A DNA stretch of 37,650 bases from a virus (IMGVR_UViG_3300045988_125995), one strand, 5' to 3'. Numbered from the stretch's first letter, positions 120 through 28,711 are shown. A program made the numbers and translations. The notes: a model not told the origin generated them from the sequence alone.

Positions 120-409
120 ACGAGATCATAGGCGCCGCTCCGACGGAAAAGGCCGCGCCGGTGAACGATGCGCTTGTTATTCAGCTTCGCGCCGATCTGC
201 GGCACGAGCGGAAGAGAAACAGCCTTGGGTGGGTACTGTTCGCAGTGGTCGCGTTTATTGCAATAGGCGTTCTGATATACGACATCGCAAACCCGCAGTT
301 TGGCTTGGTGCGATACAACATCCAGCAGGCGGAGGCGCGAATACGCGAAACAGCGTCGCACACGCCGGTTAGCGCCGTCCGGCGCTGGGCATGTGAATTT
401 ATACTCTGA
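2..409 (+). CDS. HTH (XRE-like) regulator with one C-terminal TM helix. It is 5'-truncated in this copy; the true start is ATG 37485 across the circular join (about 151 aa).
   Basis: Frame is open from nt 2. HTH-like LTVSEIARICGEPEQKIRRVLADGKSP; hydrophobic helix WVLFAVVAFIAIGVLIY; TGA stop at 407-409. Confidence 0.7.
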   Translation, partial: EIARICGEPEQKIRRVLADGKSPAFAPLCGIITACGGSVDEIIGAAPTEKAAPVNDALVIQLRADLRHERKRNSLGWVLFAVVAFIAIGVLIYDIANPQFGLVRYNIQQAEARIRETASHTPVSAVRRWACEFIL

Positions 410-467
410 CGCGCGCAGAACGCCGCAGAACGCGACAGGCGCGGTTAAACAGGGGGGAAACAAAGAA

Positions 468-1601
468 ATGAAGTGTAAGCAATGCGGCAGGGAGATACCG
501 GAGGCCGCTATTTTCTGCTGCTGGTGCGGAGTGAAGCAGCTCAGGGAACGCAGGAAGAAGGACGCTATAAAAGTGCCGAAGCCGCGGAAGCTCCGTTCCG
601 GCGCGTGGAACATCGAACTGCGCGCCGAGGGGCAGAGCATAACCGAAGCGACGGCGGAGCTATGCGAGGCGAAAGCGCGGGCGATCCGCGCCGGTTTTAT
701 CGAGGCGAAGAAAGCCGCGCCGAAGATGACCGTTGACGCCGCACTCGAAGCCTACATCAAGAGCCGCGAGCTCCTGTCGCCGTCCACGCTGCGAGGATAT
801 GAGGCAATCCGCCGGACGCGCTTCCGGGCGATAAGCAACAAGGATATAAATGCTGTTGACTGGCAGAATGCCATAAATGCCGAAGCGAAGCTATGCTCGC
901 CGAAGACACTTAAAAATGCGTGGGGGCTGTTTTCTTCGGCGCTGAAGTCTGCGGGAGTTGAGCCGGGCGAGGTAACGCTGGCACAGGTGGCAAGCAAGGA
1001 TTTGCCTTGGCTCGACTATGAGCAGATAAAGACGTTTTTGGAGGCGGTCAAGTATGAGCCTTGCGAGCTGGGCGCGCTGCTGGCGCTTCATTCCCTGCGG
1101 CGGTCGGAAATCTATGCGCTGACGGCGGCAGATGTTGACCTTGCAAAGGGCTTGATCCGCGTCGAAGGCGCGGCGGTGCTTGATGCTGATAACAACCTGA
1201 CGCAAAAGGACACCAACAAAAACGAAACATCGCGCCGGACTGTGCCGATTATGATACCGCGACTGCGCGAGATTTTGCCGGGGGCTATGGCGGCGGCCGA
1301 CGGCGGGGCACTGGTACAGGGCAATGTTAACACGTTGTATAATCAGGTTAACCGGATTTGTGACGCCGCGGGGCTCCCTCGTGTCGGCGTCCACGGCTTG
1401 CGGCGGTCGTTTGCGTCGCTGGCGTATCATCTGCGCTGGTCGGAGCTTGAGACAATGCGGGTCGGCGGATGGTCAGATTTTAATACTATGCGCAAAATTT
1501 ATACCAAGCTTGCCGAACGAGATAAGAGCGCGGCGGCGCAGAAGATGGAGCAGTTTTATTCCGCAGAAGAGCTGGACGAGGAAGCCGAAAAACGTTCGTA
1601 A
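468..1601 (+). CDS. int: Tyrosine recombinase/integrase with N-terminal zinc ribbon
   Basis: ATG 468 follows the purine-rich tract AGGGGGGAAACAAAGAA. N-terminus CKQC...CCWC. Catalytic-type motifs LRRSEIYALT (Arg), HGLRRSFASLA (H-x-x-R) and GGWSD..MRKIYTK (Tyr). TAA stop. Confidence 0.9.
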   Translation: MKCKQCGREIPEAAIFCCWCGVKQLRERRKKDAIKVPKPRKLRSGAWNIELRAEGQSITEATAELCEAKARAIRAGFIEAKKAAPKMTVDAALEAYIKSRELLSPSTLRGYEAIRRTRFRAISNKDINAVDWQNAINAEAKLCSPKTLKNAWGLFSSALKSAGVEPGEVTLAQVASKDLPWLDYEQIKTFLEAVKYEPCELGALLALHSLRRSEIYALTAADVDLAKGLIRVEGAAVLDADNNLTQKDTNKNETSRRTVPIMIPRLREILPGAMAAADGGALVQGNVNTLYNQVNRICDAAGLPRVGVHGLRRSFASLAYHLRWSELETMRVGGWSDFNTMRKIYTKLAERDKSAAAQKMEQFYSAEELDEEAEKRS

Positions 1602-2947: not shown

Positions 2948-3403
2948 CTAACGCTCCCATGACTTGCGCTCTATATCCTTCACCGCCTCGATGCCGGGGC
3001 GGGCTTTTTTTATCTCCTCGAACCGCTTTATTGCGGCGTGGCGCTCCTTGCCGGGGAACACTTCCGTTTCCGTCTCGGTCTCCGTCCCGTCGGCGTATGT
3101 GGTGATATGTCGGATATAATACTTGATGCCGCTGCATCCGTTATACCGTTCAAGCTTTACGCGGTCTTTGCTGGGCATTGTGGCAAGGGCGTTATATCTG
3201 GCGGCGAGGTCTTGCCGGTACTCTATAAGCTGCGTTGCCAGGTGCTTGCACTCTGCAATCAGCTCGGCGGCGCGGCGGTCATAGTCCCTGATTTTGTCGT
3301 AGTTGTCGCAGGCTTCAGGGCGCTTCAAATAGCCCCATATCCTTATTTCCGCTTCTTGGCTGGGGCTACCGTAGCGGGTGAACAGCTCGTCTTTATAGCT
3401 CAT
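2948..3403 (-). CDS. Hypothetical protein (151 aa); terminates with TAG
   Basis: ATG 3403 preceded by AGGAGGTAAAAAG. Stop is TAG (2948-2950); the next in-frame stop is TGA 20 codons later (2885-2887). Confidence 0.7.
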   Translation of the reverse strand: MSYKDELFTRYGSPSQEAEIRIWGYLKRPEACDNYDKIRDYDRRAAELIAECKHLATQLIEYRQDLAARYNALATMPSKDRVKLERYNGCSGIKYYIRHITTYADGTETETETEVFPGKERHAAIKRFEEIKKARPGIEAVKDIERKSWER

Positions 3404-6149: not shown

Positions 6150-6224
6150 GCTGGTGTAGCTCAATGGAAGAGCGGCTGCTTCGTAAGCAGCCGGTTGAGG
6201 GTTCAAGTCCTTCTGCCAGCTCCA
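6150..6224 (+). tRNA. tRNA-Thr (anticodon CGT)
   Basis: Manual cloverleaf: acceptor GCTGGTG/TGCCAGC; D stem GCTC/GAGC; anticodon stem GCTGC/GCAGC with loop TTCGTAA (CGT at 6182-6184); T stem GAGGG/CCTTC with loop TTCAAGT; CCA encoded. Confidence 0.85.
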
Positions 6225-6227
6225 TAT

Positions 6228-6302
6228 AGCAGAGAGAGTGCTGGTGCTCCTCCGGGACTCATAATTCCGGCTACGTCGGTTCGATTCCGGCCTCTGCTAC
6301 CA
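6228..6302 (+). tRNA. tRNA-Met-like (anticodon CAT; could equally be an Ile2/lysidine type), atypical D arm
   Basis: Acceptor AGCAGAG/CTCTGCT; anticodon stem CGGGA/TTCCG with loop CTCATAA (CAT at 6260-6262); T stem GTCGG/CCGGC with loop TTCGATT; CCA encoded. A at position 8 and a weak D stem. Confidence 0.6.
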
Positions 6303-7976: not shown

Positions 7977-8375
7977 ATGGCAAAACCCGGCCCGAAGAGA
8001 AAATAGGACAGCCCTGACAAGCTGCGGGCAGCTGTCGAGGCCTACATAGAGAAGTGCGAGGCGGAAGGCATTTTCCCCGACGAAGCGGGAATGAGGCTTG
8101 AGCTTGGCGTTACGGCGCAGACCCTCGACAAATACTGCAAGGACGAGAACGCGGATGGGAAAGAGTTCCGCGAGATACTTTCGTGGGCGAAGGACAAGCG
8201 CGAAAGCTACCTCGTGCGGAAGATGACCAGCGACAACAAGGCGGCGCAGGGCTGCCTCAATGCGCTGAAGCAGCCGTCAAACGGCGGCTACATAGACCGG
8301 CCTGCCGACTCCGGCGGCGAGCGGAAGCTCACGATAAACCTTGTGGGAGTGGGCGGAGAGAGCGCCTTCAAGTAA
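7977..8375 (+). CDS. terS: Terminase small subunit-like protein, with in-frame TAG at codon 10 (8004-8006)
   Basis: ATG 7977 after GAGGTGA. Reads MAKPGPKRK[TAG]DSPDKLRAAVEAYIEKCEAEG...GVTAQTLDKYCK, the N-terminal motif plus HTH typical of TerS. The ORF-track fragment 8091-8375 is the same frame. TAA stop. Confidence 0.7.
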
Positions 8376-8386
8376 GGCGCGTATAT

Positions 8387-8470
8387 GGGCCGGTGGCAGA
8401 ATGGGATTGCGGCTGACTCTAAATCAGCTGCCTGACGGCGGAGAAGGTTCGATTCCTTCCCGGCTCACCA
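8387..8470 (+). tRNA. Amber-suppressor tRNA (anticodon CTA), class II with long variable arm and discriminator A73
   Basis: Acceptor GGGCCGG/CCGGCTC (one G-U pair); D stem GCAG/TTGC with loop AATGGGA; anticodon stem GCTGA/TCAGC with loop CTCTAAA (CTA at 8419-8421); 14-nt variable arm TGCCTGACGGCGGA; T stem GAAGG/CCTTC with loop TTCGATT; A then CCA encoded. Confidence 0.85.
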
Positions 8471-8487
8471 GAAAAAAGGAGATTACA

Positions 8488-8823
8488 TTGCTGACTATCA
8501 TACTTATCTTAATCTTTGCCGTGGTCTTCGTGGGCGCGCTTGCTGTTCTGCAACACAGCCTCTCAGGTAAAGCGGAAGAGGAAGACATGCTGGAACAGGT
8601 GGCGCGCCTTGCGAGAGCGCAGGAGCGGTTAAACACGCGGCTCGAAAAGCTGGAAGAGCAGGTCTTTCGGCAGAAGGGCGGCGAGCTTGACGAGATAAAA
8701 AGACGGCTCGAAGAGCTGGAGAGCGACACTGCGGGAGGCAACGCGGCGCTTGACCAGATGTTTCTCGCGGGGATCAACGGCATTATGAATTACGGCATGA
8801 AGGACGCAGTAAAGCGAGGCTGA
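8488..8823 (+). CDS. Membrane-anchored coiled-coil protein (about 111 aa), unknown function
   Basis: TTG start 7 nt after AAGGAG. N-terminal TM LTIILILIFAVVFVGALAVL followed by heptad-like LEKLEEQV...RLEELE. TGA stop. Confidence 0.55.
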   Translation: MLTIILILIFAVVFVGALAVLQHSLSGKAEEEDMLEQVARLARAQERLNTRLEKLEEQVFRQKGGELDEIKRRLEELESDTAGGNAALDQMFLAGINGIMNYGMKDAVKRG

Positions 8824-8826
8824 TAA

Positions 8827-10545
8827 ATGGGACAGTTTGATATTTTCTACGGCAAAAAGCTGCCTGATTAGCAGAGCGGCTGGCGGCTTTACGATGAGGC
8901 CGAACGCTTCAACTCCAACATAAACCTGCGCGAGACGGTGCGGGTGAACGAGAATTTCTACATTGGCAAGCAGTGGGAGGGCGTACAGTCCAACGGTCTG
9001 CCGACTCCGGTTTTCAACTTTATAAAGCGCGTCGTCGGCTTTGACGTGGCGACGATAACCTCGGACAACGTGAAGGTGACGGCCTCGCCGCTTGCGAACA
9101 CCGCGAACACCGACGGGCTTATAGAGCCGGTGCGGATAGTGAACGAGGAGTTTGACGCGCTGGCGGCAAGAAACAAGATATCCTCTCTGCTGAGAGAGTT
9201 TGCCCGCAATGCCGCGGTGGACGGCGACGGCTGCCTGTACACCTATTGGGACGCCGACGCGGAGACCGGCCAGCAGTCCAAGGGCATGATCCGGACGGAG
9301 ATAGTAGAAAACACGCGGGTGTACTTCGGGAACCCGAATGACCGGCGCGTACAGACCCAGCCGTGGATAATGATAGGCAGCCGCGAGATAACCCGCATCG
9401 TTCGCCGCAGGGCGAAGGAAAACGGGATGGCCGAGTGGCAGAGTATCAGCCCCGACTGCGAGGACGACAGCGTTGACACGGCGAAGGTGACGGACGACAA
9501 GACGACCGTGCTTCTGCTGCTGTGGCGCGACGAGGAGACGGGACACATATGGCAGTATGAATTCACACGCAATTCCGGTGTGACTGCCCCGATAGACACA
9601 AAGCTTTCGCTTTATCCTATCTGCTGGCTGAGCTGGGACTACGTGCAGGACTGCTATCACGGGCAGAGCATGGTGACGGGACTGACCCCGAACCAGATGT
9701 TCGTCAACAAGATTTGGGCGGCTGCGATGCTCTCGATGCTCCGCACGGCGTTCCCGAAATGGATATACGACAAGACCCGCATAAAGCGCTGGGACAACGG
9801 CGTCGGCACGGCAATCGGCATATCGGGCGGCGACGTATCAACGGTGGCGAAGGTGATAGACCCTGCCTCCATATCCCCGCAGGTGGCGCAGTTCATCGAC
9901 ATGGCGGTAAAGCAGACGGAAGAATGCCTCGGCGCTACGAGCGTTGCGCTCGGCGACACCCGCCCCGACAATACCTCCGCCATTATAGCCCTTCAGCGCG
10001 CAGCATCCACGCCGATGGAGATGACGAAGCTCAACCTTTATCAGGCGGTGGAGGACTTGTTCAGGATATACCTCGACTTCATGTCCGCCTACTACGGAGT
10101 GCGCGCGGTTGACATGGAGCCTACGCCGGAGATACGGCAGCAGTATGAATTTGCAGGGATGCCGGTTCCGGACTCCATCATTGCGGAATTCGACTTTGAC
10201 ACGTTGAAATTCCACCCGATGATGCTGAAGCTCGACGTCGGCGCAAGCTCCTACTACTCCGAGATAGCGTCAATCCAGACGCTGGATAATCTGCTAATGA
10301 ACGGGCATATCAACGCAATACAGTACCTTGAGAGAATCCCCGACGGCTATATACCGGCGCGCCGGGCATTGATAAACGAGCTGAAAGCAACGCAGGCCAT
10401 GAACGCGGTTCCGCCCGGAGCACCACCCAACGCGGCGACCGGCGACGTGGCGGCACAGGCAAAGCCGGAAATCCCCACGGGCGGCGGATTCTCTGATCTG
10501 CAACGCAAGGTGTTGGAGTCGGGATCGACTCAAGGACTTATCTGA
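8827..10545 (+). CDS. Portal protein, with in-frame TAG at codon 15 (8869-8871)
   Basis: ATG 8827 is in frame with ORF 8938-10545. Reads MGQFDIFYGKKLPD[TAG]QSGWRLYDEAERFNS..., then VNENFYIGKQWEG. About 570 aa and located next to the terminase. TGA stop. Confidence 0.8.
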
Positions 10546-10560
10546 CAGGAGGAAAAGAAA

Positions 10561-11058
10561 ATGAATGCACCTGACAAGGCGGCTGAGATAAAGGCCGCGA
10601 TAGCTGCATTTTTCGCTTTCCTGACGGCTCTCTGGGGCTGGCTGGGCTGGGCGATAATTGTGTGGCTGGGCTGCGTACTGCTGGACTATATCACCGGCAC
10701 GTGGGCGGCGAAATCCAACGGCGAATGGTCGAGCGCCGTTGCAAGAGCGGGGCTTTGGCACAAGCTGGGCGAGATAGTGGCGGTGCTGGTTGCGGCAATG
10801 TGCGATATCGCAATAGGCGTGATACTGAAAGGCTCCGGAATAGACTTCGGCATAGATTACAGTGTGTTGGTGACGCCGGTCGTGCTGCTGTGGTACATCG
10901 TAACTGAGCTGGGCTCCATTATTGAAAACGCAGGAAAGCTCGGCGCACCCATTCCCGAATGGCTGAAAAGGAGCCTGAAGAACTACAAGGATACGCTTGA
11001 CGCCAAAACCGGCGGCGGGGCGCATCTCCCCGAACACTCGGAAGAAGACAGGGAATAA
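10561..11058 (+). CDS. Holin (TcdE/phage holin family-4-like)
   Basis: Three hydrophobic helices. LDYITG..A.....WSS..........HK and TELGSIIENAGKLGAPIPEWL resemble toxin-secretion/phage-lysis holins. Confidence 0.7.
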   Translation: MNAPDKAAEIKAAIAAFFAFLTALWGWLGWAIIVWLGCVLLDYITGTWAAKSNGEWSSAVARAGLWHKLGEIVAVLVAAMCDIAIGVILKGSGIDFGIDYSVLVTPVVLLWYIVTELGSIIENAGKLGAPIPEWLKRSLKNYKDTLDAKTGGGAHLPEHSEEDRE

Positions 11059-11154
11059 GGCGAAAGCCTTTTCCCGTCTCTATAAGAATATATCCACCGG
11101 CATAGACCAATGCCGTAACATAGACCGCCGACCATAGCGGACAAGGAGAATTGA

Positions 11155-12045
11155 ATGTACGAAGAGATTAACGAAGCAGTTGAGACCGAAGGCGCTGAGG
11201 AATGGGCAGACAGCGACGCGTTCTGGGATGACGATCCCGCCGCGGAGACTGAACCCGCCGCAGAGCAGGAGGAGGCCGAGGGCGCCGAGGCTGACGAGCA
11301 GGAGGCGGAGGAGACCGATACTGCCGACGACCCTCACGACGAGGGCGCGGACGACGGAGCCGAGGAACCGGAGGGGCAGCAGGGTGAGAGCGCAGACCAG
11401 CGCTTTGAGCTCAAGCACCTTGAGGAGACACGGAGCGTTGACCGTGAAGAGGTTATAAAGCTTGCGCAGAAGGGCATGGATTACGACCGCATTCGAGAGG
11501 AACGCGACAGCATCCGCCCGGAACTGCGGCTTTACCGAGAATTCCTCAAGGAGCTTGCCGACGGCTCCGGACTGACCGTTTCGGAGCTGATAGACACGGT
11601 TCGGGCACAGCGCCTTGTGGCAAAAGAGAAGGAAAACGGCAAGGAGATGACCGAGGCCGAAGCACTGATAAAGGTGCAGCGCGAGCGCAGCGAGAAAGCC
11701 AAGAGCGCGCCCAAGGCCGAGGAAGAGGCTCCCCCGAAGGAAGAGAAGCCCGCAGAGGCTAAAGCGGAGGACTCCCGCAAGGAGAGCTTCGCACGGTTTG
11801 CAAGGGAATTCCCCGACGTCAAGGCCGAGGATATACCCGCCAAGGTATGGCAGGATTTTTCCGCCGGAAAAGGCGACCTTGCGGACATCTACGCGAGACA
11901 CGAGAACGCGGCGCTCAAGGCCAAGATTGCGGCCATGGAGCGCAACGAGGACAACAGAAAACGCTCCACGGGGAGCAGAAAAAGCAGCGGCGCAAAGGCG
12001 AAGGACATCTTCGACAGCGCATGGGAAGATTCACCCTACGACTGA
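11155..12045 (+). CDS. Scaffolding protein (acidic, coiled-coil)
   Basis: ATG after AAGGAGA. Highly E/D/A/K-rich and lies immediately upstream of the major capsid gene. Confidence 0.6.
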   Translation: MYEEINEAVETEGAEEWADSDAFWDDDPAAETEPAAEQEEAEGAEADEQEAEETDTADDPHDEGADDGAEEPEGQQGESADQRFELKHLEETRSVDREEVIKLAQKGMDYDRIREERDSIRPELRLYREFLKELADGSGLTVSELIDTVRAQRLVAKEKENGKEMTEAEALIKVQRERSEKAKSAPKAEEEAPPKEEKPAEAKAEDSRKESFARFAREFPDVKAEDIPAKVWQDFSAGKGDLADIYARHENAALKAKIAAMERNEDNRKRSTGSRKSSGAKAKDIFDSAWEDSPYD

Positions 12046-12083
12046 TTTTTCGCCTCCGGGAGCCATTAACGGAGGAAATATAA

Positions 12084-13145
12084 ATGGCAACTATAAATCT
12101 TATGGACAAGTGGGCGCCTCGCCTTGAGAAGCGCTTTACGACCGGCTCCATCACCGACAAGTGGTGCGGCACCAACTGGGAGTGGACCGGCGTTAACACC
12201 CTGAAGACTCTGACTCTGCTTACCGACCCCCTGAACGATTAGAACCCTGCGGCAAATGCGAACCGCTTCGGCACTATGACCGAGGTGGACGACGAGGCCA
12301 ACTCCTACACGCTGACCAAGAAGCGCAGCTTTGACAAAGCCTTTGACGAGACCAACGTGCAGGATCAGAACTTCCTCAAGAAGGGCGCGGCCTACCTCAA
12401 GCAGATGTGGGACGAGAGATACGTCCCTGAGATCGACACCTACCGTTTCGCCCGCTGGGCAGACGGCGCAGGTCTCGGCACTGTCGCTACGGCGGCTATC
12501 TCCAAGACCAATATCGTCGAGGCGCTGCTGAACGCTCACGCCGCGCTTGATGACGCGGGCGTCCCGATGGAAAACCGCGTTACCTTCATACGCAGCGACT
12601 ACGCTGTAAAGTACAAGCTTGCGGACGAGTTCAAGTATGAGGGCGCGAAGGAGTTCATCCAGAAACGCCAGATCGGCGAGGTCGAGGGCAGCCCGCTTAT
12701 CAAGGTTCCGAAGAACCGCTTCCCGGCCGGCGTGGCCTTCATGGTCAAGTACAAGCAGGCGACGGCAGACCCCGTAAAGATGCGTATGCTCCGCGCAAAG
12801 GACGACTCCGATGACCTGTGCGGCGTCCGTATGCAGGGTCTCGTCCGCTACGACAGCTTCGTGCTGGCGCAGAGCGCAGACGGCATCTATGTCTACGGCG
12901 AGAACGCAGGCAACGTGCTTCAGGCTCCGACCTTCTCCACCGCCTCAAACAAGGTGACTATCACGAGCGCCGACAGCGCAAGCATCAAGTACACCACTGA
13001 CGGCACCAACCCCAAGACCTCGGCGACTGCGCAGGCTTACAGCGCGGCTGTGACCATCACGGAGAACACCACGTTCAGAGCATACGCCTACGCGACCGGC
13101 AAGACCAGCTCCGCCATCGGCAGCTACGATGCGGTGAAGACCTGA
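12084..13145 (+). CDS. Major capsid protein with C-terminal Fn3/CHB_HEX_C-like decoration domain; in-frame TAG at codon 53 (12240-12242)
   Basis: ATG 12084 after GGAGGA. Reads MATINLMDKWAPRLEKRF...LLTDPLND[TAG]NPAANANRFGTMTEVDD, in frame with ORF 12276-13145, which has no SD of its own. C-terminus IKYTTDGTNPKTS...TTFRAYAYATGK. A strong terminator follows. Confidence 0.8.
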
Positions 13146-13151
13146 TCCAAT

Positions 13152-13180
13152 AAAGGGCAGAGCAATGCTCTGCCCTTTTT
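13152..13180 (+). terminator. Rho-independent terminator after the capsid gene
   Basis: AAAGGGCAGAGC-AAT-GCTCTGCCCTTTTT. Confidence 0.8.
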
Positions 13181-13199
13181 CAAAAGGAGCGAATAAAAA

Positions 13200-13634
13200 A
13201 TGACGACTGCGCAGGACGTATTTGAAGCCTCAATGGCTCTCATGGACGAGCTGAACGAGGCGAGCGGAGCCGCCGACACGGCGGACACCAAGGAATACAA
13301 AAACCGGACGCTGCCTGTCCTTAACATCCTGATAGGCGAGGTTTACCCGTATTCCGACACATACAAGAGCCGAAACGAGGGCAAGCGCCCGATCGTAACG
13401 GCGATAAGTGATTTTGACAGCAGCATCGGACTTGATGATTACATATGCCGCAGTGTGCTCCCTTACGGGCTGGCGGCACACCTGCTCATAGACGAGAACC
13501 CGGCCTCGGCAAGTTTCTTCCAGCAGCGCTACGACGAGCTGAAAGCGATGCTTCGGTTGGGCTTCCCGGAGGAATTTGAGCCGATAGAGGATATATACGG
13601 CGGGCTGGGCTGCGGCGACTTTGCCCGCTGGTGA
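13200..13634 (+). CDS. Hypothetical virion protein (144 aa), possible head-tail adaptor by position
   Basis: ATG after AAAGGAG. The position-based guess is the only evidence for function. Confidence 0.5.
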   Translation: MTTAQDVFEASMALMDELNEASGAADTADTKEYKNRTLPVLNILIGEVYPYSDTYKSRNEGKRPIVTAISDFDSSIGLDDYICRSVLPYGLAAHLLIDENPASASFFQQRYDELKAMLRLGFPEEFEPIEDIYGGLGCGDFARW

Positions 13635-13648
13635 AGCGAGGCGGATAA

Positions 13649-15466
13649 ATGGCGACTATAAGCGGCAGCACAAGCGAAAAGATATTCCAGATAAAAGCAT
13701 GGCTGGGGCTGAACGAGAACCCAGACGGCGATACCAAGCTGAAGCTTGGCGAGGCGGCGGCAATGCGTAACTTTGCCATTACGCGAGACGGGAATCTACG
13801 CCGCAGACCCGGCAGCAAGAAGATTGCAAGCCTCGGATCCTCCCCCGTGCGGGGCATGTGGACGGGCTACATAAACGGGAAAGAGGAGTTCATCGCCGCC
13901 TGCGGCGGCAAGCTCTGGCGGCTGTGGAACGCGGAGACGGGAGCCTTCACTGCGACCGAGATAGGCAGTATCGACACCACGAATGAGGTACATATGTTCG
14001 GCTTTTCCGAAATACTCTACCTCATAAACGGCAGCGAATACAAGCAGTATGACGGCACGACGCTTTCGGACGTCGGCGGGTACAGGCCGCTTGTGACGAT
14101 AGCCGTACCTCCGAGCGGCGGCGGGGAAACGCTGGAGGAGGTAAACAAGCTCGTAGGCACTCGGCGCTGCTGGATATCCCCGGACGGTAAGGCGGCGGAA
14201 TTCACGCTTCCGGAAAGCGGCTTGCAGAGCCTTGACTATGTGAAAGACCTGAAAACCGGCGAGAATTTGGCGGCGAGCGCATACACGGCAGACCTGACGG
14301 CAGGAACAGTGACCTTTACTGAAGTTCCGGCGCTCGGCGTAAACAGCCTTGAGATAGGCTGGACGATGGCGACGAACTTCCGCACACAGGTAAGCTCGAT
14401 GCGGTACAGCGAGCTTTACGACGGTGCGCAGGACACGCGGGTTTTCCTCTACGGCGACGGGAGCAATCAGGCGATATACTCAGGGCTTGACTACGACGGC
14501 AAGCCGAGGGCGGACTATTTCCCCGACCTGAACGTTGTGAACGTTGGCGATGCGAACACGCCCATCACCGGACTGATACGGCATTACTCCACGCTCGTTG
14601 CCTTCAAGTCGAGCAGCGCGTGGAGCATACGCACGAGCGAGCTTACGCTGGCCGACGGCGCAACGACGAAAGCCTTTTATGTATCGCCTATAAACAGGGC
14701 GATAGGCAACGCTGCGCTGGGGCAGACGCGCCTCGTGCTGAACTCGCCCAGAACGCTGCACGGCAAGGACGCTTTCGAGTGGCGGAACAACAGCAGCTAC
14801 TCCTCGAACCTGACGGCGGACGAGCGGCAGGCGAAGCGCATAAGTGACCGGATATACGCGACGCTGGGCGGCTTTGACCTTGCGAAATGCTACTGCTGGG
14901 ACGACAACGACAATCAGGAGTATTACATCTGCTATAACGGCAAGGCTCTTGTGCAGAACTACGCGGCGGACGCTTGGTACTGCTACGACGGCTTTGACGC
15001 GGTATGCATGGCGAACTTCCACGGCGCGCTTTACTACGGCACGTCCGGGGGCGCGATAGAGCATTTAGGCTACGAGCATATCACCGACGACGGGCGGGCT
15101 ATCGACGCATATTGGGAAAGCGGCTCGATGAGCTTTGGGCAGGATTACATGCGCAAATACTCCGCTCAGATATGGGTAGGCATAAAGCCGGAGGCAAACG
15201 GCGAAGTGACCGTTACGGCGCAGACAGACAGAAAAAGCACCTACGCCGAAAAGATTGTGGCGAGCCAGATGGCGAGCTTCAGGCGCGCGAACTTCCGGAA
15301 CTGGAGCTTTGGCACGAACCGCAAGCCGCATATGACAAGGCTGAAGATAAAGGCGAAGAAGTTCGTCTTTTATAAGCTTATATTCATGGCGGCGGAGCCT
15401 GACACGACATGCACGATACTTGCGGCGGATATGCGAGTGAGGTTTACCGGATATACGAAGGGGTGA
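13649..15466 (+). CDS. Large virion/tail structural protein (605 aa), possibly a tail tubular/nozzle-type protein
   Basis: Uninterrupted ORF in the late operon, beta-rich in composition. No tail tube, sheath or chaperone-frameshift genes are seen, which hints at a podovirus-like tail. Confidence 0.45.
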   Translation: MATISGSTSEKIFQIKAWLGLNENPDGDTKLKLGEAAAMRNFAITRDGNLRRRPGSKKIASLGSSPVRGMWTGYINGKEEFIAACGGKLWRLWNAETGAFTATEIGSIDTTNEVHMFGFSEILYLINGSEYKQYDGTTLSDVGGYRPLVTIAVPPSGGGETLEEVNKLVGTRRCWISPDGKAAEFTLPESGLQSLDYVKDLKTGENLAASAYTADLTAGTVTFTEVPALGVNSLEIGWTMATNFRTQVSSMRYSELYDGAQDTRVFLYGDGSNQAIYSGLDYDGKPRADYFPDLNVVNVGDANTPITGLIRHYSTLVAFKSSSAWSIRTSELTLADGATTKAFYVSPINRAIGNAALGQTRLVLNSPRTLHGKDAFEWRNNSSYSSNLTADERQAKRISDRIYATLGGFDLAKCYCWDDNDNQEYYICYNGKALVQNYAADAWYCYDGFDAVCMANFHGALYYGTSGGAIEHLGYEHITDDGRAIDAYWESGSMSFGQDYMRKYSAQIWVGIKPEANGEVTVTAQTDRKSTYAEKIVASQMASFRRANFRNWSFGTNRKPHMTRLKIKAKKFVFYKLIFMAAEPDTTCTILAADMRVRFTGYTKG

Positions 15467-15470
15467 AAAA

Positions 15471-16268
15471 ATGGCATTTACAAAACTGACAGAAGATATT
15501 GCATAGATAAGCAAGCTGGACGACGAGCCGAATGACGTTGACGGGCTTTCCGCCGACCAGCTGAAAGCGACGTTCGACAAGGCCGGGATTACTATCAAGA
15601 CGTGGATAAACACCGTTCTGCTCCCCGCGCTTGAGGGCAGCGCGGCTGCCGGAAACCTCGGCATAGCAGCAATATCCGGTCTTACCGGCATAGCAACTGT
15701 GCAGGCGGCGCTGGAAAAGCTTGAAGCGCAGATAAGTGAGGCGGCAGTCGGTGACATTCCAGACGCATCTCTCACAGCGGCAAAGCTGGCAGACAACGCT
15801 GTTACCGGAAGCAAGATAGCGGACGGCGCGGTAGGCTCGGCGAAGATAGCGGACGGTGCCGTGACATCGGGCAAGCTTGGCGCGGGCGCTGTAACGGCGG
15901 AGAAGATAGCAGCTCTAGCCGTTGCGACTGCGGCTATTGCGGAGCTGGCCATTACCACAGCGAAGATAGCAGACAAGGCCATTACCACAGCGAAGATAGC
16001 AGACAAGGCCGTCGGCACTTACCAGATGGACGACAGCAGCATTACGTCTGCAAAAATCAGAGGCGGAGTCGTTACAGCAGACAAGCTTGCGTCCGGCGCG
16101 GTTACTACCACAAAGCTTGGCGCGGGCGCAGTCACCGGCGAAAAGCTGGCAGCAGGTGCACCCAATACGGCAATGGCAGCGACGCGGTACAAACTGGTCA
16201 GCGGTGTACACTATGGCAGCTCTTTGCCGCCGGACATCGCAGACGACGAGCTGTTTTTCCTTGTATGA
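15471..16268 (+). CDS. Tail fibre-like protein with Ala/Gly/Val/Lys-rich ~10-residue repeats of the type (I/L)A-D/x-x-A(V/I)T-x-x-K; in-frame TAG at codon 12 (15504-15506)
   Basis: ATG 15471 after AAGGGGTG. Reads [11 protein letters not shown][TAG][27 protein letters not shown], in frame with ORF 15699-16268. Confidence 0.7.
15951..16010 (+). repeat. Perfect 30-bp tandem duplication inside the fibre repeat region
   Basis: ATTACCACAGCGAAGATAGCAGACAAGGCC occurs twice (15951-15980 and 15981-16010) and encodes [10 protein letters not shown] twice. Confidence 0.95.
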
Positions 16269-16276
16269 GGTGATGT

Positions 16277-16816
16277 ATGGCTACACTGAGTTTTGCCGTT
16301 ACGAACAGTGCTTGGAACTGGAGCGGCACGGTAAGCATTAACTACGAGGTCGAATACAACGAGGACGCGAATACGACCACGGTTACGTTCGCAGAGTCAA
16401 AGTTCACGTATTGGGGTCGCAATAACTACGGCACATCTGCCTCGGCGGATATAAGCGTTCAGGCTGCTGATAACACGGTGAGCAAGGGCGCTGCGCAGAT
16501 GTCCGCGTATGGCAACACGGCAAGCGGCTCAAAAGACTTTCCGGCTACGCCGTCGCCCACGTCTGTCACAGTGCAGCACAGCGACGCAGACGGGGAGAAG
16601 TCCATAGTCATATCGGCATCGGCTGTTGTTAAGGCGTACATGAGTTCCACCGCGACGCGCCAGACTGAAGGCACAGGTAGCGGGGCAGAAACCGTTGTGA
16701 GCGGAGAACATGCCTCGTCAAAGGCGGTAATTTACATAAACGGTACAGCCGTTAAGGCTGTGCCGTACATCGGAAAGAAAAAGGCTACGGCATACCGAGG
16801 CCGCACGAAGCTATAA
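16277..16816 (+). CDS. Virion/receptor-binding-associated protein, paralogue of 18646-19461
   Basis: N-terminal similarity of about 140 aa to the 18646 product (..TTVTF.ES.F.Y.GR..YGTSA...I.V.A.DN...G.A....YG.T..G.K.F..TPSP.S.TVQH...G.KSI.ISAS). Confidence 0.6.
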   Translation: MATLSFAVTNSAWNWSGTVSINYEVEYNEDANTTTVTFAESKFTYWGRNNYGTSASADISVQAADNTVSKGAAQMSAYGNTASGSKDFPATPSPTSVTVQHSDADGEKSIVISASAVVKAYMSSTATRQTEGTGSGAETVVSGEHASSKAVIYINGTAVKAVPYIGKKKATAYRGRTKL

Positions 16817-16825
16817 GGAGGACGC

Positions 16826-17134
16826 ATGACAATATTGCAGGGCGACGCATAGCTCATACCGATAGCATTGACAGCTGACGGCGAGCCTGTCACGGACGCG
16901 GATATTGAGGCGATGGAGGTCATTCTCGGCGGCATATCCAAGCTCTACCCGGACGAGCTGGGCTATGCCAACGGCGAGTTCCAGTTCCCGCTGACGCAGG
17001 AAGAGAGCTTCGCTATGGCAGAGGACAGATACGACCTTCTGATACGGCCTAAGTTTGCCGACGGCACCGTGTCGGGCGTACTCAAGGCAGGGGAGATAGA
17101 GGTCGTAGCGACAGACACGAGGAGAGTGCTGTGA
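16826..17134 (+). CDS. Small virion protein; in-frame TAG at codon 9 (16850-16852)
   Basis: ATG 16826 sits 4 nt after AAGGAGG. Reads MTILQGDA[TAG]LIPIALTADGEP..., in frame with ORF 16868-17134, whose TTG start has no SD. Confidence 0.65.
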
Positions 17135-17418
17135 TGAGAACCGTGACGGCAAAGATGCAGCGGGTGCGGCGGATAAGCGCCAACATTGGCGCAGGCTCAC
17201 AGCTCGCTCTTGACCTCGGAATAAAGATAACGGCCGACACGTCGCCAAAATATACCGGAGAATATGACGTGCGGCCTAAGACTTACGAGCCGGTGGTGCT
17301 GGAGACGAAGGGACGCTCAATGCTGGACGACGTGACAGTGCAGAAAATCCCGCAGTTCGAAGTTTCAAACGACGCGGGCGGGAAAACACTTATTTTGGGG
17401 GATGAATATTATGGCTAA
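17134..17418 (+). CDS. Small virion protein (94 aa)
   Basis: ATG 17134 overlaps the upstream TGA (TGATG). GGAGAG lies 7 nt upstream. TAA stop. Confidence 0.55.
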   Translation: MRTVTAKMQRVRRISANIGAGSQLALDLGIKITADTSPKYTGEYDVRPKTYEPVVLETKGRSMLDDVTVQKIPQFEVSNDAGGKTLILGDEYYG

Positions 17419-17995
17419 CTAGTTCAACAAGGTAATACTCGGTACAGAGGTAAAGCTTGACCTTACGGGCGACGACATAACCGCGGCTGACCTGAAGAAG
17501 GGTATCAAAGCGCACGACAAGAGCGGAGCGCCAATCGTCGGCACGAATACGAACGACGCGAACACCTCGGACGCGACGGCGACTGCGGCGGAAATACTCA
17601 AGGATAAAACCGCTTATGTGGCAGGTTCCAAGCTGGCCGGCACGATGCCGAACAACGGGGCAAAGACACTTGAAATAGCTACCAAGGACGGCACACCACC
17701 CATCCCCATGGGCTTTCACGACGGCAGCGGCAAGGCGCAGATAGCGGCGGCGGAGAAAGCAAAGCTTATCCCCGAAAACATCCGCGAGGGCATAACAGTG
17801 CTCGGCGTAGCCGGTTCTATGTCCGGTTCCGAAGGAATGAAGCCGCAGGCAAAGTCTGTCACTCCGAGCTTCGCAAGTCAGGAGGTTCTGCCCGACAGCG
17901 GCTACAATTGCCTGTCCTCGGTGACGGTCGCGGCGATACCTGTTTCAGAAGCAGCCAACGCGGCGGGAGGAATAACGCTCACGATAGGAGGCTGA
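17411..17995 (+). CDS. Tail fibre/spike N-terminal-module protein (paralogous N-terminus to 17997-18641); in-frame TAG at codon 4 (17420-17422)
   Basis: Reads MAN[TAG]FNKVILGTEVKLDLTGDDITAADLKKGIKAHDKSG, in frame with ORF 17618-17995. The neighbour starts MGVSKVIIDDEVKLDLTADTVEPAALKAGYTAHNAAG. Confidence 0.65.
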
Positions 17996-17996
17996 C

Positions 17997-18641
17997 ATGG
18001 GAGTAAGCAAGGTCATTATAGATGACGAAGTTAAGCTTGACCTGACGGCGGACACGGTAGAGCCGGCGGCGCTCAAAGCAGGGTATACAGCGCACAACGC
18101 AGCAGGAAACAAAATAGTGGGGACTATGTCGGCTTCGGGTGGCACTTTTAAGGTAACGGTGACGTTCTACCCCGATACACATATGTGTACTTCGGACAAA
18201 ACATTGCAGGAGGCTCTGGCCGCCTACAATGCGGGTATGCTGCCTTACGTCGAGTTTCACAGTTATGATGCCGTGGAATTCTATGAAATGCAGGCCAAGA
18301 GTGATGCCGAGATAATATTTGTGCATTACTTTATGTCGTTCAACGCCTCCAACGATGGTATTGTAATGCCCTCAATGGGGTGCTACTCCATTACCCTCAC
18401 TGACGACGGCGCAATTCTGGACGACTCCGGTTCGAGCGACGTGGTAAGCTATGTGGCAGTTAACCCAAACCTCAATGCGCCTTCAGAAGATACCGTGCCA
18501 AGTACGCAATGCGTCTCGAACGCGCTAAGCAAAAAGCTCAACAAGCAGCTTGTGGCCGGAGAAGACTACTTTGACAGTGAGGCTGCGCTGCCTGCGCCCG
18601 GAACTGTCGGGAGAATATATTTTGTAAAGGCGGAGGCGTGA
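17997..18641 (+). CDS. Tail fibre/spike protein, second copy of the N-terminal module with a different C-terminal domain
   Basis: ATG overlaps the upstream stop (TGACATG). Shares the KV...EVKLDLT..T......K.G..AH...G..IVGT motif with 17411-17995. Confidence 0.6.
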   Translation: MGVSKVIIDDEVKLDLTADTVEPAALKAGYTAHNAAGNKIVGTMSASGGTFKVTVTFYPDTHMCTSDKTLQEALAAYNAGMLPYVEFHSYDAVEFYEMQAKSDAEIIFVHYFMSFNASNDGIVMPSMGCYSITLTDDGAILDDSGSSDVVSYVAVNPNLNAPSEDTVPSTQCVSNALSKKLNKQLVAGEDYFDSEAALPAPGTVGRIYFVKAEA

Positions 18642-18645
18642 AGCC

Positions 18646-19461
18646 ATGGCGCAGCTTTCATATACCGCGGAGCTAACTGCTTATAGCTGGACAGGCTCGA
18701 CGTATATAAACTATACGGCGCGTTACGACCCAGTTGCGAATGCGACAACGGTAACATTTGAGACTTCCGAGTTCAGTTACTATGGCAGAAGCGGCTACGG
18801 TACATCGGCCGAGGCAACTATTACCGTTACAGCTTCCGACAACTCCGGCAGCAGCGGCTCGGCAACTCTGAGCACCTACGGTTCAACGAATGGCGGCACG
18901 AAGTCCTTCACGGGAACACCGTCCCCCGCGAGCATCACAGTGCAGCACGCCGCAGGCGGAGGCGCGAAGAGCATCAACATAAGCGCCAGCAGCACGATTA
19001 AAGTCTACCCGACTTCATGGCTGAAGTCGCAAAAGACGGCAACGGGCAGCGGCAGTGCGAGCGAGACGGCAGGTACGGCGTATGTATTTCACAAAAGCGT
19101 GTCTGAAGGCGTAGCACAGGCGGATGTATATGACAGAACCAACACTCGAAGTGCAAAGCTTGCGGAAGGCGATTTGCTGTGTGCTGGAGATGTAATTCAG
19201 CTTTACAGGGCAGCCGCAGACGGCTATGAGCTGACGGCGGCGCACTTCGGCGGTGGCGGTATCGTTGACGACGGAGCTACGCACACGGTTACTGGCGAGA
19301 CAACAGTAACAGTAACTGCGAAGAAATCTGTCCCGAAGGGTTACGTGAAAATCGACACCGGGCAGGCACTTGTGAACTACTGCGCGATGATAGATACCGG
19401 CACGGGGTACGTCAGGTATAGAGCTTATATAGACACCGGAACTAAAATAGTTCCGTATTGA
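18646..19461 (+). CDS. Virion/receptor-binding-associated protein, paralogue of 16277-16816 with an extra C-terminal domain
   Basis: See 16277-16816. 271 aa. TGA stop. Confidence 0.6.
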   Translation: MAQLSYTAELTAYSWTGSTYINYTARYDPVANATTVTFETSEFSYYGRSGYGTSAEATITVTASDNSGSSGSATLSTYGSTNGGTKSFTGTPSPASITVQHAAGGGAKSINISASSTIKVYPTSWLKSQKTATGSGSASETAGTAYVFHKSVSEGVAQADVYDRTNTRSAKLAEGDLLCAGDVIQLYRAAADGYELTAAHFGGGGIVDDGATHTVTGETTVTVTAKKSVPKGYVKIDTGQALVNYCAMIDTGTGYVRYRAYIDTGTKIVPY

Positions 19462-19474
19462 TAAGGAGGACAAT

Positions 19475-20245
19475 ATGGCAAAGACAAATACCGGACTCGT
19501 CGAGTACGCACTGGCGCAACTGGGCAAGCCCTACTGGTGGGGCACCTTCGGGCAGACGGCCTCGGCGGCGCTGCTCGCGCAGAAGCGTGAGCAGTACCCG
19601 GATAGGTATGACTCGTATGGCGACGAGTGCAAGAAGCAGTATGGCCAGAAGGTACATGACTGCGTCGGGCTTATCAAGGGCTATCTTTGGAGCGACACAC
19701 CGGACAGCGAGCCTATATACAAGGCGGCGCAGGACGTGGCGGTATCTGGGCTGTATCTGGTCTGCCCTGAAAGCGGCAGCATCGACACCATGCCTGACAT
19801 ACCGGGCGTGTGCGTGTTTATGCGGGACATGTCCCACGTCGGCGTTTACGTCGGCGGCGGCTACGTCGTAGAGGCAACCGGCCACGCGCGCGGCGTGGTC
19901 AAGACCAAGCTTGCAGGGCGCGGCTGGGGGCTGTGGGGCAAGCCCCGCTGGATAAGTTACGAGGCTGCTGCCACTCCAGCACAGCCTGCACAGACCGCAC
20001 AGACCACCGCCTCGGGGCTGACCGTCACCGGCCTGCCGCTGCTGCGCTACGGCGACAAGGGAGAGTGCGTCCGCTCGGCGCAGATGCTCCTCATCGGGCG
20101 CGGCTACTCCTGCGGCAGGTGCGGCGCGGACGGCGAAATAGGGCAGGACACTTTCAATGCGGCGGTGGCGTACCAGCGCGCCTGCGGCTTGCAGCAGGAC
20201 GGTATCATAGGCGCTCAGACTTGGGCGCGGCTGATAGGAGGTTAA
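19475..20245 (+). CDS. Endolysin: NlpC/P60-type peptidase plus C-terminal peptidoglycan-binding (PG_binding_1-like) domain
   Basis: LGKPYWWG...HDCVGLIKGY (Cys) and SHVGVYVGGGYVVEA (His). C-terminus GDKGECVRSAQMLL..GY.....DGEIGQDTFNAAVAYQRACGLQQDGIIGAQTW. Confidence 0.85.
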   Translation: MAKTNTGLVEYALAQLGKPYWWGTFGQTASAALLAQKREQYPDRYDSYGDECKKQYGQKVHDCVGLIKGYLWSDTPDSEPIYKAAQDVAVSGLYLVCPESGSIDTMPDIPGVCVFMRDMSHVGVYVGGGYVVEATGHARGVVKTKLAGRGWGLWGKPRWISYEAAATPAQPAQTAQTTASGLTVTGLPLLRYGDKGECVRSAQMLLIGRGYSCGRCGADGEIGQDTFNAAVAYQRACGLQQDGIIGAQTWARLIGG

Positions 20246-20248
20246 GGC

Positions 20249-21196
20249 ATGGCAACCTTTGAGGAAACCTACAGCAAGTACAATGCTGACCGTGCATCTG
20301 CTATAAACGGAATGTACGACGCTCAGAAAGCCGCTACGCTCAGTCAGCTTGAGAGCGCATAGAACCAGAACCGGCAGACACAGGAGGCGGCCAAGAACCA
20401 GATAGCGCCGACGTATCAGCAGAGGGCGAATGACCTCGCGGTGCAGTATGAGCGCAACCGCCGGAACTTCAACCAGCAGGCGGCGGGCAGCGGCCTCAAC
20501 ACCGGCACGGCGTCGCAGGCGGCGCTCGCCCAGAACAGCACTTGGCAGAGGGATTACGGCAATCTCCGCACGGCGGAGGCGGACGCACTGACGGAGGCTG
20601 ACCGGCAGATGGCGGCGCTTGAGACGCAGTACAAGTCCGCAGTTGCTCAGGCGATAGCCGAGAACGACTACAACCGCGCAAAAGCGCTCATGGACGAGTA
20701 CGGCAATCAGGAGTCCCGCGACGCGACAATGGCGAAGATACTTGCTGGCTACGGAGACTTCAGCGGCTACGCAAAGCTCTACGGCGACGACGCTGCAAAC
20801 AACATGGCGCAGTATTGGATATACTCAAACCCGCAGCTTGCTTACAGTATGGGCAAGATAAGCGCAGACGAGTATGCAAGGCTGACCGGGAAGCGCACCG
20901 GCGGCAAGGCGACCGGAGGCAAAACGCTCAGTGAGGCTTTCACTGATGATAAATATGGGCAGGATTACACCAGCAACGGTCTTAACCTCACGGATATGAT
21001 GGAACTCATCAATAAGGGCGACACGCTTTCGGCTCTCAGACAGGCAGAGGCTTTCGCCGCAGATGCCTACGCAAACCCCGACAAATACACCGACTCTCAA
21101 ATTGAGCGAATGGTCGAACTCAAAAGAATGGCGCAGAGAGGCCAGAAGATTAGCGGTTCGGTTGGCGGCGGGCGGAACCTCGACGCACTTAGATAA
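20249..21196 (+). CDS. Q/A/N-rich coiled-coil virion protein; in-frame TAG at codon 38 (20360-20362)
   Basis: ATG 20249 after AGGAGG. Reads ...ATLSQLESA[TAG]NQNRQTQEAAKNQIAPTYQQRAND, in frame with ORF 20441-21196, which starts at an internal GTG. Confidence 0.65.
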
Positions 21197-28171: not shown

Positions 28172-28711
28172 CTATATGCACTTATCGAACTTCGTGCGGG
28201 CTTTCTGCATGCACTGGTTTACCCACTGGCGGGAAACGCCTATACGGGCGGCTATCTCTTTCTGAGAATAGCCGCAATAGGCGAACTGTACGGCTTGACG
28301 CTCTCTATCAGAGAGGGAGGCAAGGAAAGCCTTACTGTCGAGCCAGCCTGTATCGGGCTGGACGCCGTACATCTCATGCAGGGGCGAGCCTTCTCCATCC
28401 ATCGCCTGCGCATCGAGCGGGATAAGAGGCGCGGGCGGCGTCCTGTGTTGCAGGTTGGCCATCATGTGCAGGCGGCGTATCTCGTTGAGGATATACCGCA
28501 CGGCCAGAGCGTAGAGACTGCCGCGCGACGGGTCATAGACGCAGCAGGCGTGCCAGAAGGCAAGGTGGGCTTCCTGCATGACGTCATCGTCAAAGAGATA
28601 CTGCCGGTAATACTTCTTGACGACATCCCCGACGATTCGCCGGTTTTTGAGGTAGAGCGCCTCGGCCGGTGCCCACTCTGACGGGGAGGGGGGAGATGGG
28701 CTGTTACTCAT
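28172..28711 (-). CDS. Sigma-70 family (ECF-like) RNA polymerase sigma factor; terminates with TAG
   Basis: Region-2-like DDDVMQEAHLAFWHACCVYDP and region-4 HTH YSQKEIAARIGVSRQWVNQCMQKAR. TAG stop (28172-28174), then GAG GAT GAA TAA in frame. Confidence 0.8.
   Translation of the reverse strand: MSNSPSPPSPSEWAPAEALYLKNRRIVGDVVKKYYRQYLFDDDVMQEAHLAFWHACCVYDPSRGSLYALAVRYILNEIRRLHMMANLQHRTPPAPLIPLDAQAMDGEGSPLHEMYGVQPDTGWLDSKAFLASLSDRERQAVQFAYCGYSQKEIAARIGVSRQWVNQCMQKARTKFDKCI

Follow-up and report, generated by a model that had tools for sequence, protein, structure and literature searches.

How a temperate gut phage completes virion proteins whose genes each carry an amber codon near the start, and which amino acid it places there, is the question raised by a 37,650-nucleotide (nt) stretch of viral DNA (IMGVR_UViG_3300045988_125995; G+C about 57%), referred to below as the window and analysed over its whole length. 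Seven late genes on the plus strand, encoding the small terminase (terS), the portal protein, the major capsid protein, a tail fibre-like protein and three proteins of the tail region, hold one in-frame TAG apiece (Table 1). The best explanation as a whole, and in our judgement a very probable one, is that the phage's own tRNA-Tyr-like suppressor with the anticodon CUA reads UAG as Tyr in these seven virion genes and gates late expression. Judged from the reading frames, the seven genes need suppression of UAG for their full translation and the phage supplies a CUA tRNA; judged from alignment, the residue opposite the TAGs in relatives is Tyr. All of the data are metagenomic sequence.

The open reading frames (ORFs) were called with only TAA and TGA as stops. 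Where no product name is available, genes are designated by their first nucleotide. The TAG contexts are PKRK[TAG]DSPDKLRAAVEAYIEKCE in terS, PLND[TAG]NPAANANRFGT in the capsid gene, QGDA[TAG]LIPIALT in gene 16826 and LESA[TAG]NQN in gene 20249. These four contexts, already quoted in a preliminary description of the window, were found letter for letter where it had placed them, and three more TAGs, at 8869 (portal), 15504 (fibre) and 17420 (gene 17402), complete the seven proteins that it had counted. When the TAGs are read through, the genes are tightly packed and abut one another. Profile or homologue matches cross each TAG or begin at it, and in gene 17402 the phrog_13589 match begins exactly at the TAG; both flanks of each TAG are homologous to full-length proteins of relatives. 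ORFs called under the standard code would drop conserved N-termini, the capsid protein losing 64 residues that 119 homologues conserve. In the capsid gene, the differences from relatives are synonymous on both sides of the TAG, and the TAG set is retained across at least eight independent assemblies. The 19 late genes themselves stop at TGA or TAA, and never at TAG.

The identity of the inserted residue is indicated by relatives that bear a sense codon in place of the TAG. At five sites (terS, portal, capsid, fibre and gene 16826), this codon is TAT or TAC, and the flanking residues are identical. In the capsid gene it is TAT in L001, L002, L261, L263 and L264, with 90–98% protein identity. 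L001 and L002, at about 97% DNA identity, carry the suppressor tRNA and have TAT at the capsid site, and L263, with a capsid protein 91% identical, combines TAT there with a variant of the same tRNA. L263 also has TAC at the terS site (AKPGPKRK[Y]DSPDKLRAA) and at the portal site (KKLPD[Y]QSGWRLYDE), while L119 has TAT in terS behind the same AKPGPKRK flank. The fibre codon is TAT in L263 and L264 (KLTEDIA[Y]ISKLDDEPN), as well as in L121 and L122. L119, L121 and L122, which have TAT at these terS and fibre sites, show about 75% capsid identity and are without the suppressor. The codon in gene 16826 is TAC in all six informative loci, and MTILQGDA[Y]LIP is read in P0248, P0249, L263 and L264 (TAC in L263).

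The residue tallies were drawn from tblastn loci for the seven columns, together with a 119-protein capsid set and a 120-protein portal set. Every one of the 119 full-length proteins shows Tyr in the capsid column, and every one of the 96 sense-codon loci TAT or TAC. For gene 20249, more distant loci have Tyr (TAT or TAC) in 37 of the 42 informative cases, the remainder being Gly or Ala. In terS, Tyr is present in four further nearest homologues, and the distant ones have Ile, Val or Phe; the fibre column in distant homologues reads Ile (48), Val (7), Asn (7), Phe (3) and Thr (3). An extra TAG in L263, at terS codon 64, falls in a column of Tyr (26), Phe (19) and Ala (1). Gln and Leu were absent from the seven-column tblastn tallies, from the 119-protein capsid tally and from the 120-protein portal tally, and Ser appeared once in the seven columns, at the variable portal position. 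The aromatic contexts that the preliminary description had proposed, in part from family motifs, recur in the alignments: GPK(P/R)K[Y] in the nearest terS homologues, ND[Y]...ANRFGT in the capsid homologues, QGDA[Y] in those of gene 16826 and (L/K)xxA[Y](N/D)QN in those of gene 20249.

A Codetta-style calculation, in which profile emission probabilities derived solely from the homologues were added up across the seven columns under a flat prior, gave log10 likelihoods of -4.96 for Tyr, -8.31 for Phe, -9.12 for Leu and -12.43 for Gln. The posterior for Tyr is 0.9994, and Phe, Leu and Gln lie 3.3, 4.2 and 7.5 log10 units below it. The preliminary description had put forward TAG as Tyr and suggested that the aligned columns be tabulated, that Codetta-style inference be run and that the tRNA be scored with isotype-specific models. 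The TAT and TAC codons at five sites, the Tyr columns, none of them dominated by Gln, and the posterior support its proposal as far as alignments can, and the tRNA scores given below (Tyr first, ahead of Leu and Ser) agree with it.

The suppressor tRNA gene sits in the late block, with terS on its 5′ side and an ORF (8488–8823) followed by the portal gene on its 3′ side. The tRNA was recovered by both ARAGORN and Rfam and is, in line with the preliminary description, of class II with A73 and G1-C72. It has a G2.U71 pair, an encoded CCA, a 14-nt variable region with a 3-bp GCC/GGC stem, two bases (U8 and G9) between the acceptor and D stems, and a 7-nt D-loop. Among the relatives fetched, the tRNA is present only where TAGs are also present. 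A73, G1-C72 and U35 are common to the window tRNA and to all of its counterparts in relatives, and the copies vary in pairing-neutral ways: G2.U71 becomes A2-U71, G27-C43 becomes G.U, and L263 has two double changes in the T stem. This pairing-preserving variation shows that the suppressor evolves as a working tRNA.

The identity elements of bacterial tRNA-Tyr are A73, G1-C72, U35 and a long variable arm, and those of tRNA-Leu are A73 and the A15-U48 pair (PMC9976931). The suppressor has the entire Tyr set, whereas the Leu pair is missing, with A15/A48 in the place of the A15/U48 found in 41 of 49 phage tRNA-Leu. Its 14-nt variable region has the modal length of phage tRNA-Tyr (21 of 45) and is under the minimum of 53 phage tRNA-Ser (15–23 nt), and the UGCC...GGC motif of the variable arm matches the phage tRNA-Tyr consensus.

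Phage class II tRNAs labelled by anticodon (44 Tyr, 49 Leu and 53 Ser) served to build one covariance model for each of the three isotypes; the E-values of these home-made models are rough. The window tRNA scored 71.3 bits with the Tyr model, 58.1 with Leu and 57.0 with Ser, and the L263 variant 66.8, 52.4 and 50.4 bits, respectively. All 12 held-out controls (1 Tyr, 6 Leu and 5 Ser) were assigned correctly, with margins of at least 16 bits. With the Leu model, true tRNA-Tyr score 48.7–59.3 bits and tRNA-Leu 65–89 bits, so that the suppressor, at 58.1, behaves like a tRNA-Tyr. Pairwise ranking against 707 phage tRNAs also favours Tyr, a comparison biased by the collection of the loci through their shared anticodon stem. 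The suppressor may derive from a tRNA-Tyr, with the identity elements and the model scores in favour of such a descent. No close tRNA-Tyr(GUA) parent was found among the phage tRNAs compared, the best global scores being 37/84 for a phage tRNA-Tyr and 36 for a tRNA-Leu(CAA), and a BLAST search of GenBank phages returned weak partial matches, the best annotated of which, to Bacillus phage tRNA-Tyr (E = 0.7), are too weak for use.

Several observations weigh against the assignment to Tyr. On the side of the tRNA, the D-arm measures 15 nt, less than in any of the 94 phage tRNA-Tyr and tRNA-Leu references; positions 15 and 48 form an A-A pair, and U8-G9 resembles tRNA-Leu, as does the D-loop (AAUGGGA). 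The Tyr covariance model is biased, as 41 of its 44 training tRNAs share the anticodon stem of the suppressor, having been collected by that pattern; in a cross-check, tRNA-Leu with the same stem scored 58–68 bits on the Tyr model and 83–89 on the Leu model. A hidden Markov model without the anticodon arm was not decisive (Tyr 22.3, Ser 18.8 and Leu 11.3 bits). A naive-Bayes model, right in 134 of 147 leave-one-out trials, ranked Tyr over Ser over Leu by 4–7 bits; it carries little weight, because it scored an E. coli tRNA-Tyr as Ser. The layout of the variable arm is either Tyr-like (1/3/4/3) or Leu-like (0/4/4/2), hinging on one U.G pair, and the phage tRNA-Leu(CAA) of L154, likewise one base from CUA, gives an alignment close in quality to that of the best tRNA-Tyr. 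About the amino acid, the alignments speak more clearly than the tRNA body taken by itself.

On the side of the codons, the site in gene 17402 is CAC (His) in L001 and L002, and the deep portal column varies, with Cys, Val, Pro, Glu, Ile, Asn and a single Tyr; both are uninformative as to Tyr versus other residues. A pointer to Gln or Leu comes solely from two further TAGs in relatives, both in the 1675-amino-acid (aa) tail protein. One, in L001, stands in a low-complexity linker where six relatives retain CAG (Gln, APPT[Q]ENAD); the other, at codon 39 in L006 and L008, takes the place of a CTG (Leu) within an N-terminal stretch that is hypervariable. We read them as new nonsense mutations, presumably tolerated because the suppressor is present and the positions are unconstrained. 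The frame beyond the linker TAG of L001 stays open for several hundred codons, to the end of the locus. An insert of about 600 bases stands right behind this TAG (L001:18187–21062), where the gene caller split the protein and where the downstream call has a PBECR3 Pfam match. The codon-39 TAG of L006 and L008 amounts to an eighth early TAG.

Among the alternatives, insertion of Leu draws on most of these tRNA features. The suppressor would then derive from a tRNA-Leu(CAA) by A35U, in the manner of supP, and leucyl-tRNA synthetase, being blind to the anticodon, would still charge it. The preliminary description had named Leu as the main alternative, and with respect to the tRNA this was fair: A73, U8-G9 and the D-loop AAUGGGA occur as in phage tRNA-Leu (AAUGGUAG), and a tRNA-Leu(CAA) is one base away. 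If U44.G pairs, the variable arm has no unpaired base on its 5′ side, four pairs and two unpaired bases on its 3′ side, and the pair is U-A in L263. The L154 alignment, the hydrophobic deep columns of terS and the fibre (Ile, Val and Phe), the CTG in the window at the TAG of L006 and L008, and the Leu-like scores of some other phage class II CUA suppressors can be cited in the same sense. However, Leu is missing from all seven columns, which cover hundreds of homologues and three of which are essentially invariant Tyr, and five TAG-to-TAT/TAC exchanges separate close relatives. The lower likelihood, the absent A15-U48 pair and a covariance score 13–14 bits under that for Tyr, within the range of true tRNA-Tyr on the Leu model, further argue against it. 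This alternative of the preliminary description is ruled out by the alignments, and we regard Leu as a very unlikely reading.

It may also be asked whether charging is ambiguous, or directed to another residue (Phe, His, Ser or pyrrolysine), so that the Tyr columns would merely reflect the ease of a change from TAT or TAC to TAG. The change takes one mutational step, the tRNA body is atypical, and the suppressor carries the ARAGORN label 'Pyl' and a Ser covariance score of 57 bits. In a check for mutational bias, 20% of the sense codons in the late genes that lie one step from TAG were Tyr codons, and the probability of at least five Tyr ancestries among seven was 0.005. Moreover, a non-conservative residue at the invariant capsid Tyr is not expected to persist alongside TAT alleles in near-identical strains, and Phe lies well below Tyr in likelihood. 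Insertion of Ser by a supD-type tRNA was ruled out by the 14-nt variable region (15–23 nt in phage tRNA-Ser, n = 53), by A73, where 37 of the 53 phage tRNA-Ser have G73, and by the single Ser in seven columns. In tRNA-Pyl, the variable loop is 3 nt long, a single base separates the acceptor stem from the D stem, and the D-loop is short. This type was ruled out by the 14-nt variable region, the two bases U8 and G9, and the 7-nt D-loop, and 'Pyl' is an anticodon label of ARAGORN only; no pyl genes turned up among the ORFs searched. We accordingly give a different or mixed residue little credence.

For Gln, which as 'code 15' is the customary reading in recoded gut phages, the literature default and the one within-clade exchange at the L001 linker can be adduced. 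Bacterial tRNA-Gln is class I, whereas the suppressor is class II with A73. With Gln counted zero times in seven columns and 7.5 log10 units below Tyr, and with the invariant capsid Tyr turning into Gln in strains 98% identical to TAT strains, the chance of this reading seems to us close to negligible. Hardly any chance, likewise, is left to the view that the TAGs are real stops, with proteins starting downstream or genes broken and the tRNA irrelevant: standard-code callers do yield P0003 (289 aa), P0121 (533 aa) and P0241 (88 aa), and TAG apparently ends two minus-strand genes, but conserved homology crosses or reaches every TAG, synonymous differences flank the capsid TAG on both sides, seven virion genes would have to be broken by the same codon type in all of those independent assemblies, and among the relatives fetched the distribution of the CUA tRNA coincides exactly with that of the TAG-bearing genomes.

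Given a Tyr-inserting suppressor, the placement of the TAGs becomes informative about its use. The late genes contain seven TAGs in 6428 codons, and 12 of the 19 have none. All seven TAGs (codons 7–53) lie inside the first 15% of their ORFs (Fisher combined P = 5e-4), and in five of the seven genes the TAG is the first Tyr-type codon. This early placement suggests that selection favours early termination in the absence of the tRNA. With 7 of the 261 Tyr-type codons in the late genes written as TAG, the pattern appears to be one of gating, sparse and dependent on the suppressor, rather than a change of the code as a whole.

The mechanism that we propose starts from a tRNA resembling a bacterial tRNA-Tyr with CUA for GUA, the one-base change seen in E. 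coli supF. The host tyrosyl-tRNA synthetase would charge the suppressor, as it does with supF in E. coli, and the charged tRNA would insert Tyr at UAG, for which the TAG/TAT and TAG/TAC exchanges and the Tyr columns give indirect support. The promoter scan gave no sigma-70-like match directly upstream of the tRNA. Since the gene also lies inside the late block, the tRNA is probably expressed within the late transcript, and it would then act as a translational gate on virion production, with full-length virion proteins made only in its presence. In a lysogen or in early infection, ribosomes would stop after 6–52 codons; as the TAGs are near the gene starts, failed suppression would waste just these codons. 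The early TAG positions fit such a gate, and so does the use of TAG elsewhere: the integrase is free of it, none of the 19 late genes stops at it, and two minus-strand genes appear to end in it, with a second stop nearby. The Rfam search returned tRNAs only, and no theta or HDV-like ribozyme adjoins the suppressor.

Table 1. Positions in the window of the suppressor tRNA, the TAG-bearing genes and other genes discussed.
Feature	Coordinates	Strand	Family, domain or search evidence	TAG or anticodon
Amber suppressor tRNA	8387..8470	+	ARAGORN; Rfam tRNA, 56 bits	anticodon CUA
Small terminase terS	7977..8375	+	GP3_package (residues 8-94), phrog_606	codon 10, 8004-8006
Portal protein	8827..10545	+	P22_portal, phrog_156	codon 15, 8869-8871
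Major capsid protein	12084..13145	+	phrog_422 (residues 1-274); C-terminal Fn3-associated/CHB_HEX_C domain	codon 53, 12240-12242
Tail fibre-like protein	15471..16268	+	phrog_892 and others	codon 12, 15504-15506
Small virion or tail protein, unknown family	16826..17134	+		codon 9, 16850-16852
Tail-region protein	17402..17995	+	phrog_13589 (residues 7-195)	codon 7, 17420-17422
Unknown-family protein 5′ of the 1675-aa tail protein	20249..21196	+		codon 38, 20360-20362
Integrase	300..1601	+	phrog_1, E = 8.5e-43	zero in-frame TAG
Phage sigma-factor gene	28172..28711	-		appears to end in TAG; TAA three codons beyond

The other genes place the window as a temperate tailed phage of about 38 kb, classed as temperate on account of its integrase. 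The minus strand encodes repressors, a sigma factor, a replication initiator, a methyltransferase and an exonuclease, and the late block comprises 19 plus-strand genes, from 6522 (large terminase) to 26239 (the 1675-aa tail protein). Relatives of the capsid gene were found in Oscillospiraceae, Sporobacter and Papillibacter genomes and metagenome-assembled genomes, and from this relatedness to prophages the host is probably a Clostridia species that uses the standard code. Two minus-strand genes, that of the sigma factor and a 151-aa ORF (2948–3403), appear to end in TAG, the latter with a TGA 21 codons 3′ of it. These endings suggest that TAG is still a stop outside the late module, and both genes would be lengthened by read-through once the suppressor is made.

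Some further features adjoin these genes. Two more tRNA genes, for Thr(CGT) and Met(CAT), lie at 6150–6302, just 5′ of the large terminase gene, and most close relatives have them likewise; in the full-window scan, the Met(CAT) tRNA was under the Rfam tRNA threshold and gave a weak tRNA-Sec-like match (29.6 bits). The ORF between the suppressor tRNA and the portal gene (111 aa) has a TTG start behind a good ribosome-binding site. Its product, with a hydrophobic N-terminal stretch followed by a coiled-coil-like region, is of a membrane/coiled-coil type and had no PHROG match. In L263, the portal gene (L263:1355–3745) was called in three pieces, with an in-frame TAA in the alignment, which may reflect a frameshift or assembly error, or a damaged prophage.

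If UAG is Tyr in this clade, current annotation misrepresents it in two ways. Pipelines that set TAG to Gln (Prodigal code 15, Mgcod) would put the wrong residue at conserved positions, while the standard code truncates terS, portal, capsid and tail proteins. In the public protein collection, the full-length capsid with Tyr, P0001, has 56 members and the truncated standard-code call, P0003, has 98. The near-identical entries for the portal and for gene 16826 (P0241–P0247) are truncated calls only: the portal cluster P0121 has 162 members, P0241 has 82, and 13 further clusters of gene 16826 are N-terminally truncated, at 73–89 aa. Hundreds of such calls are therefore public, and these counts indicate that the clade is common and systematically mis-annotated.

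The wider claim is that the temperate Firmicutes phages include a natural lineage that decodes UAG as Tyr by means of its own suppressor, with a single early 'amber gate' in each of terS, the portal, capsid and tail genes that locks virion production until the tRNA is made; that it is, as far as we found, the first such bacterial virus; and that amber recoding is not uniformly to Gln. We hold this to be rather probable, with a good deal less assurance than the decoding itself. If true, tyrosyl-tRNA synthetase would also be open to co-option by phages, beyond the Gln and Trp pair seen in a recoding survey, and, together with the Ser-like and Leu-like suppressors found elsewhere, phage amber recoding would not be uniformly to Gln. 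A single early gate per gene is a minimal switch, which would ease testing of the idea that recoding controls lysis-lysogeny or late genes, and a natural Tyr-inserting amber suppressor working in Clostridia could serve genetics there.

The literature that we found treats amber reassignment in phages as Gln, as the preliminary description had supposed. Where the code of a phage differs from that of its host, Borges et al. (bioRxiv 10.1101/2021.08.26.457843) observed only TAG to Gln and TGA to Trp, and they suggest that the two synthetases concerned lend themselves inherently to repurposing by phages. In other papers, TAG is set to Gln by default when genes are predicted anew. No report of TAG as Tyr in phages was found in our searches of PMC and bioRxiv, although absence there is not proof. 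Recoding by phage suppressor tRNAs is itself known; the novelty here lies in the amino acid, in the tRNA class and in the arrangement with a single gate in each gene.

The Garnet, Amethyst and Topaz clades of Borges et al. resemble the present phage in their standard-code host, a phage tRNA(CUA), in-frame TAGs confined to the late structural module, a TAG-free integrase, TAG as a stop elsewhere and a proposed switch from lysogeny or early to late expression. Unlike in those phages, the residue here would be Tyr instead of Gln and the tRNA is class II. Their genes are heavily fragmented, whereas the window has seven TAGs, one per gene and near the 5′ end, and its holin-like gene (10561–11058) and the gene with a PG_binding domain (19475–20245) are TAG-free. 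Membership in the Topaz clade as described was rejected, since Topaz genomes are 22–24 kb as compared to about 38 kb here and the TAG density differs.

Other phage contigs in IMG/VR also carry class II CUA tRNAs. By their covariance scores, those at L244:2333–2420 (70.5 bits), L258:7958–8044 (63.3 bits) and, weakly, L247:1773–1861 are Ser-like, and those at L255:3759–3840 (76.0 bits), L246:14016–14098 (the same as L250; 61.7 bits) and L248:422–508 (the same as L254; 60.9 bits) are Leu-like. They differ from the suppressor of the window in not being Tyr-like; most are in tRNA arrays, and several are on contigs of 90–200 kb. On these model scores, phage amber suppressors may insert several different amino acids.

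Outside phages, two kinds of precedent exist for a stop codon read as Tyr. The E. coli suppressor supF (su3+, tyrT) competes with release factor 1 at UAG, where it inserts Tyr. The phage suppressor resembles it in being a bacterial-type class II tRNA with A73, G1-C72, U35, A36 and CUA for GUA. In contrast to supF, a laboratory mutant of a cellular gene, it is a natural, conserved phage gene paired with TAGs in essential virion genes, and it has a shorter D-arm of Leu-like sequence and no GUA parent that we could find. In the Mesodinium nuclear code (code 29), both TAA and TAG are Tyr, and in the flatworm mitochondrial code (code 14), TAA is Tyr. These codes share with the present phage the reading as Tyr of a stop codon one base from TAT and TAC; they are eukaryotic or organellar and genome-wide, however, whereas the decoding proposed here would be a virus-encoded switch within a host that keeps the standard code.

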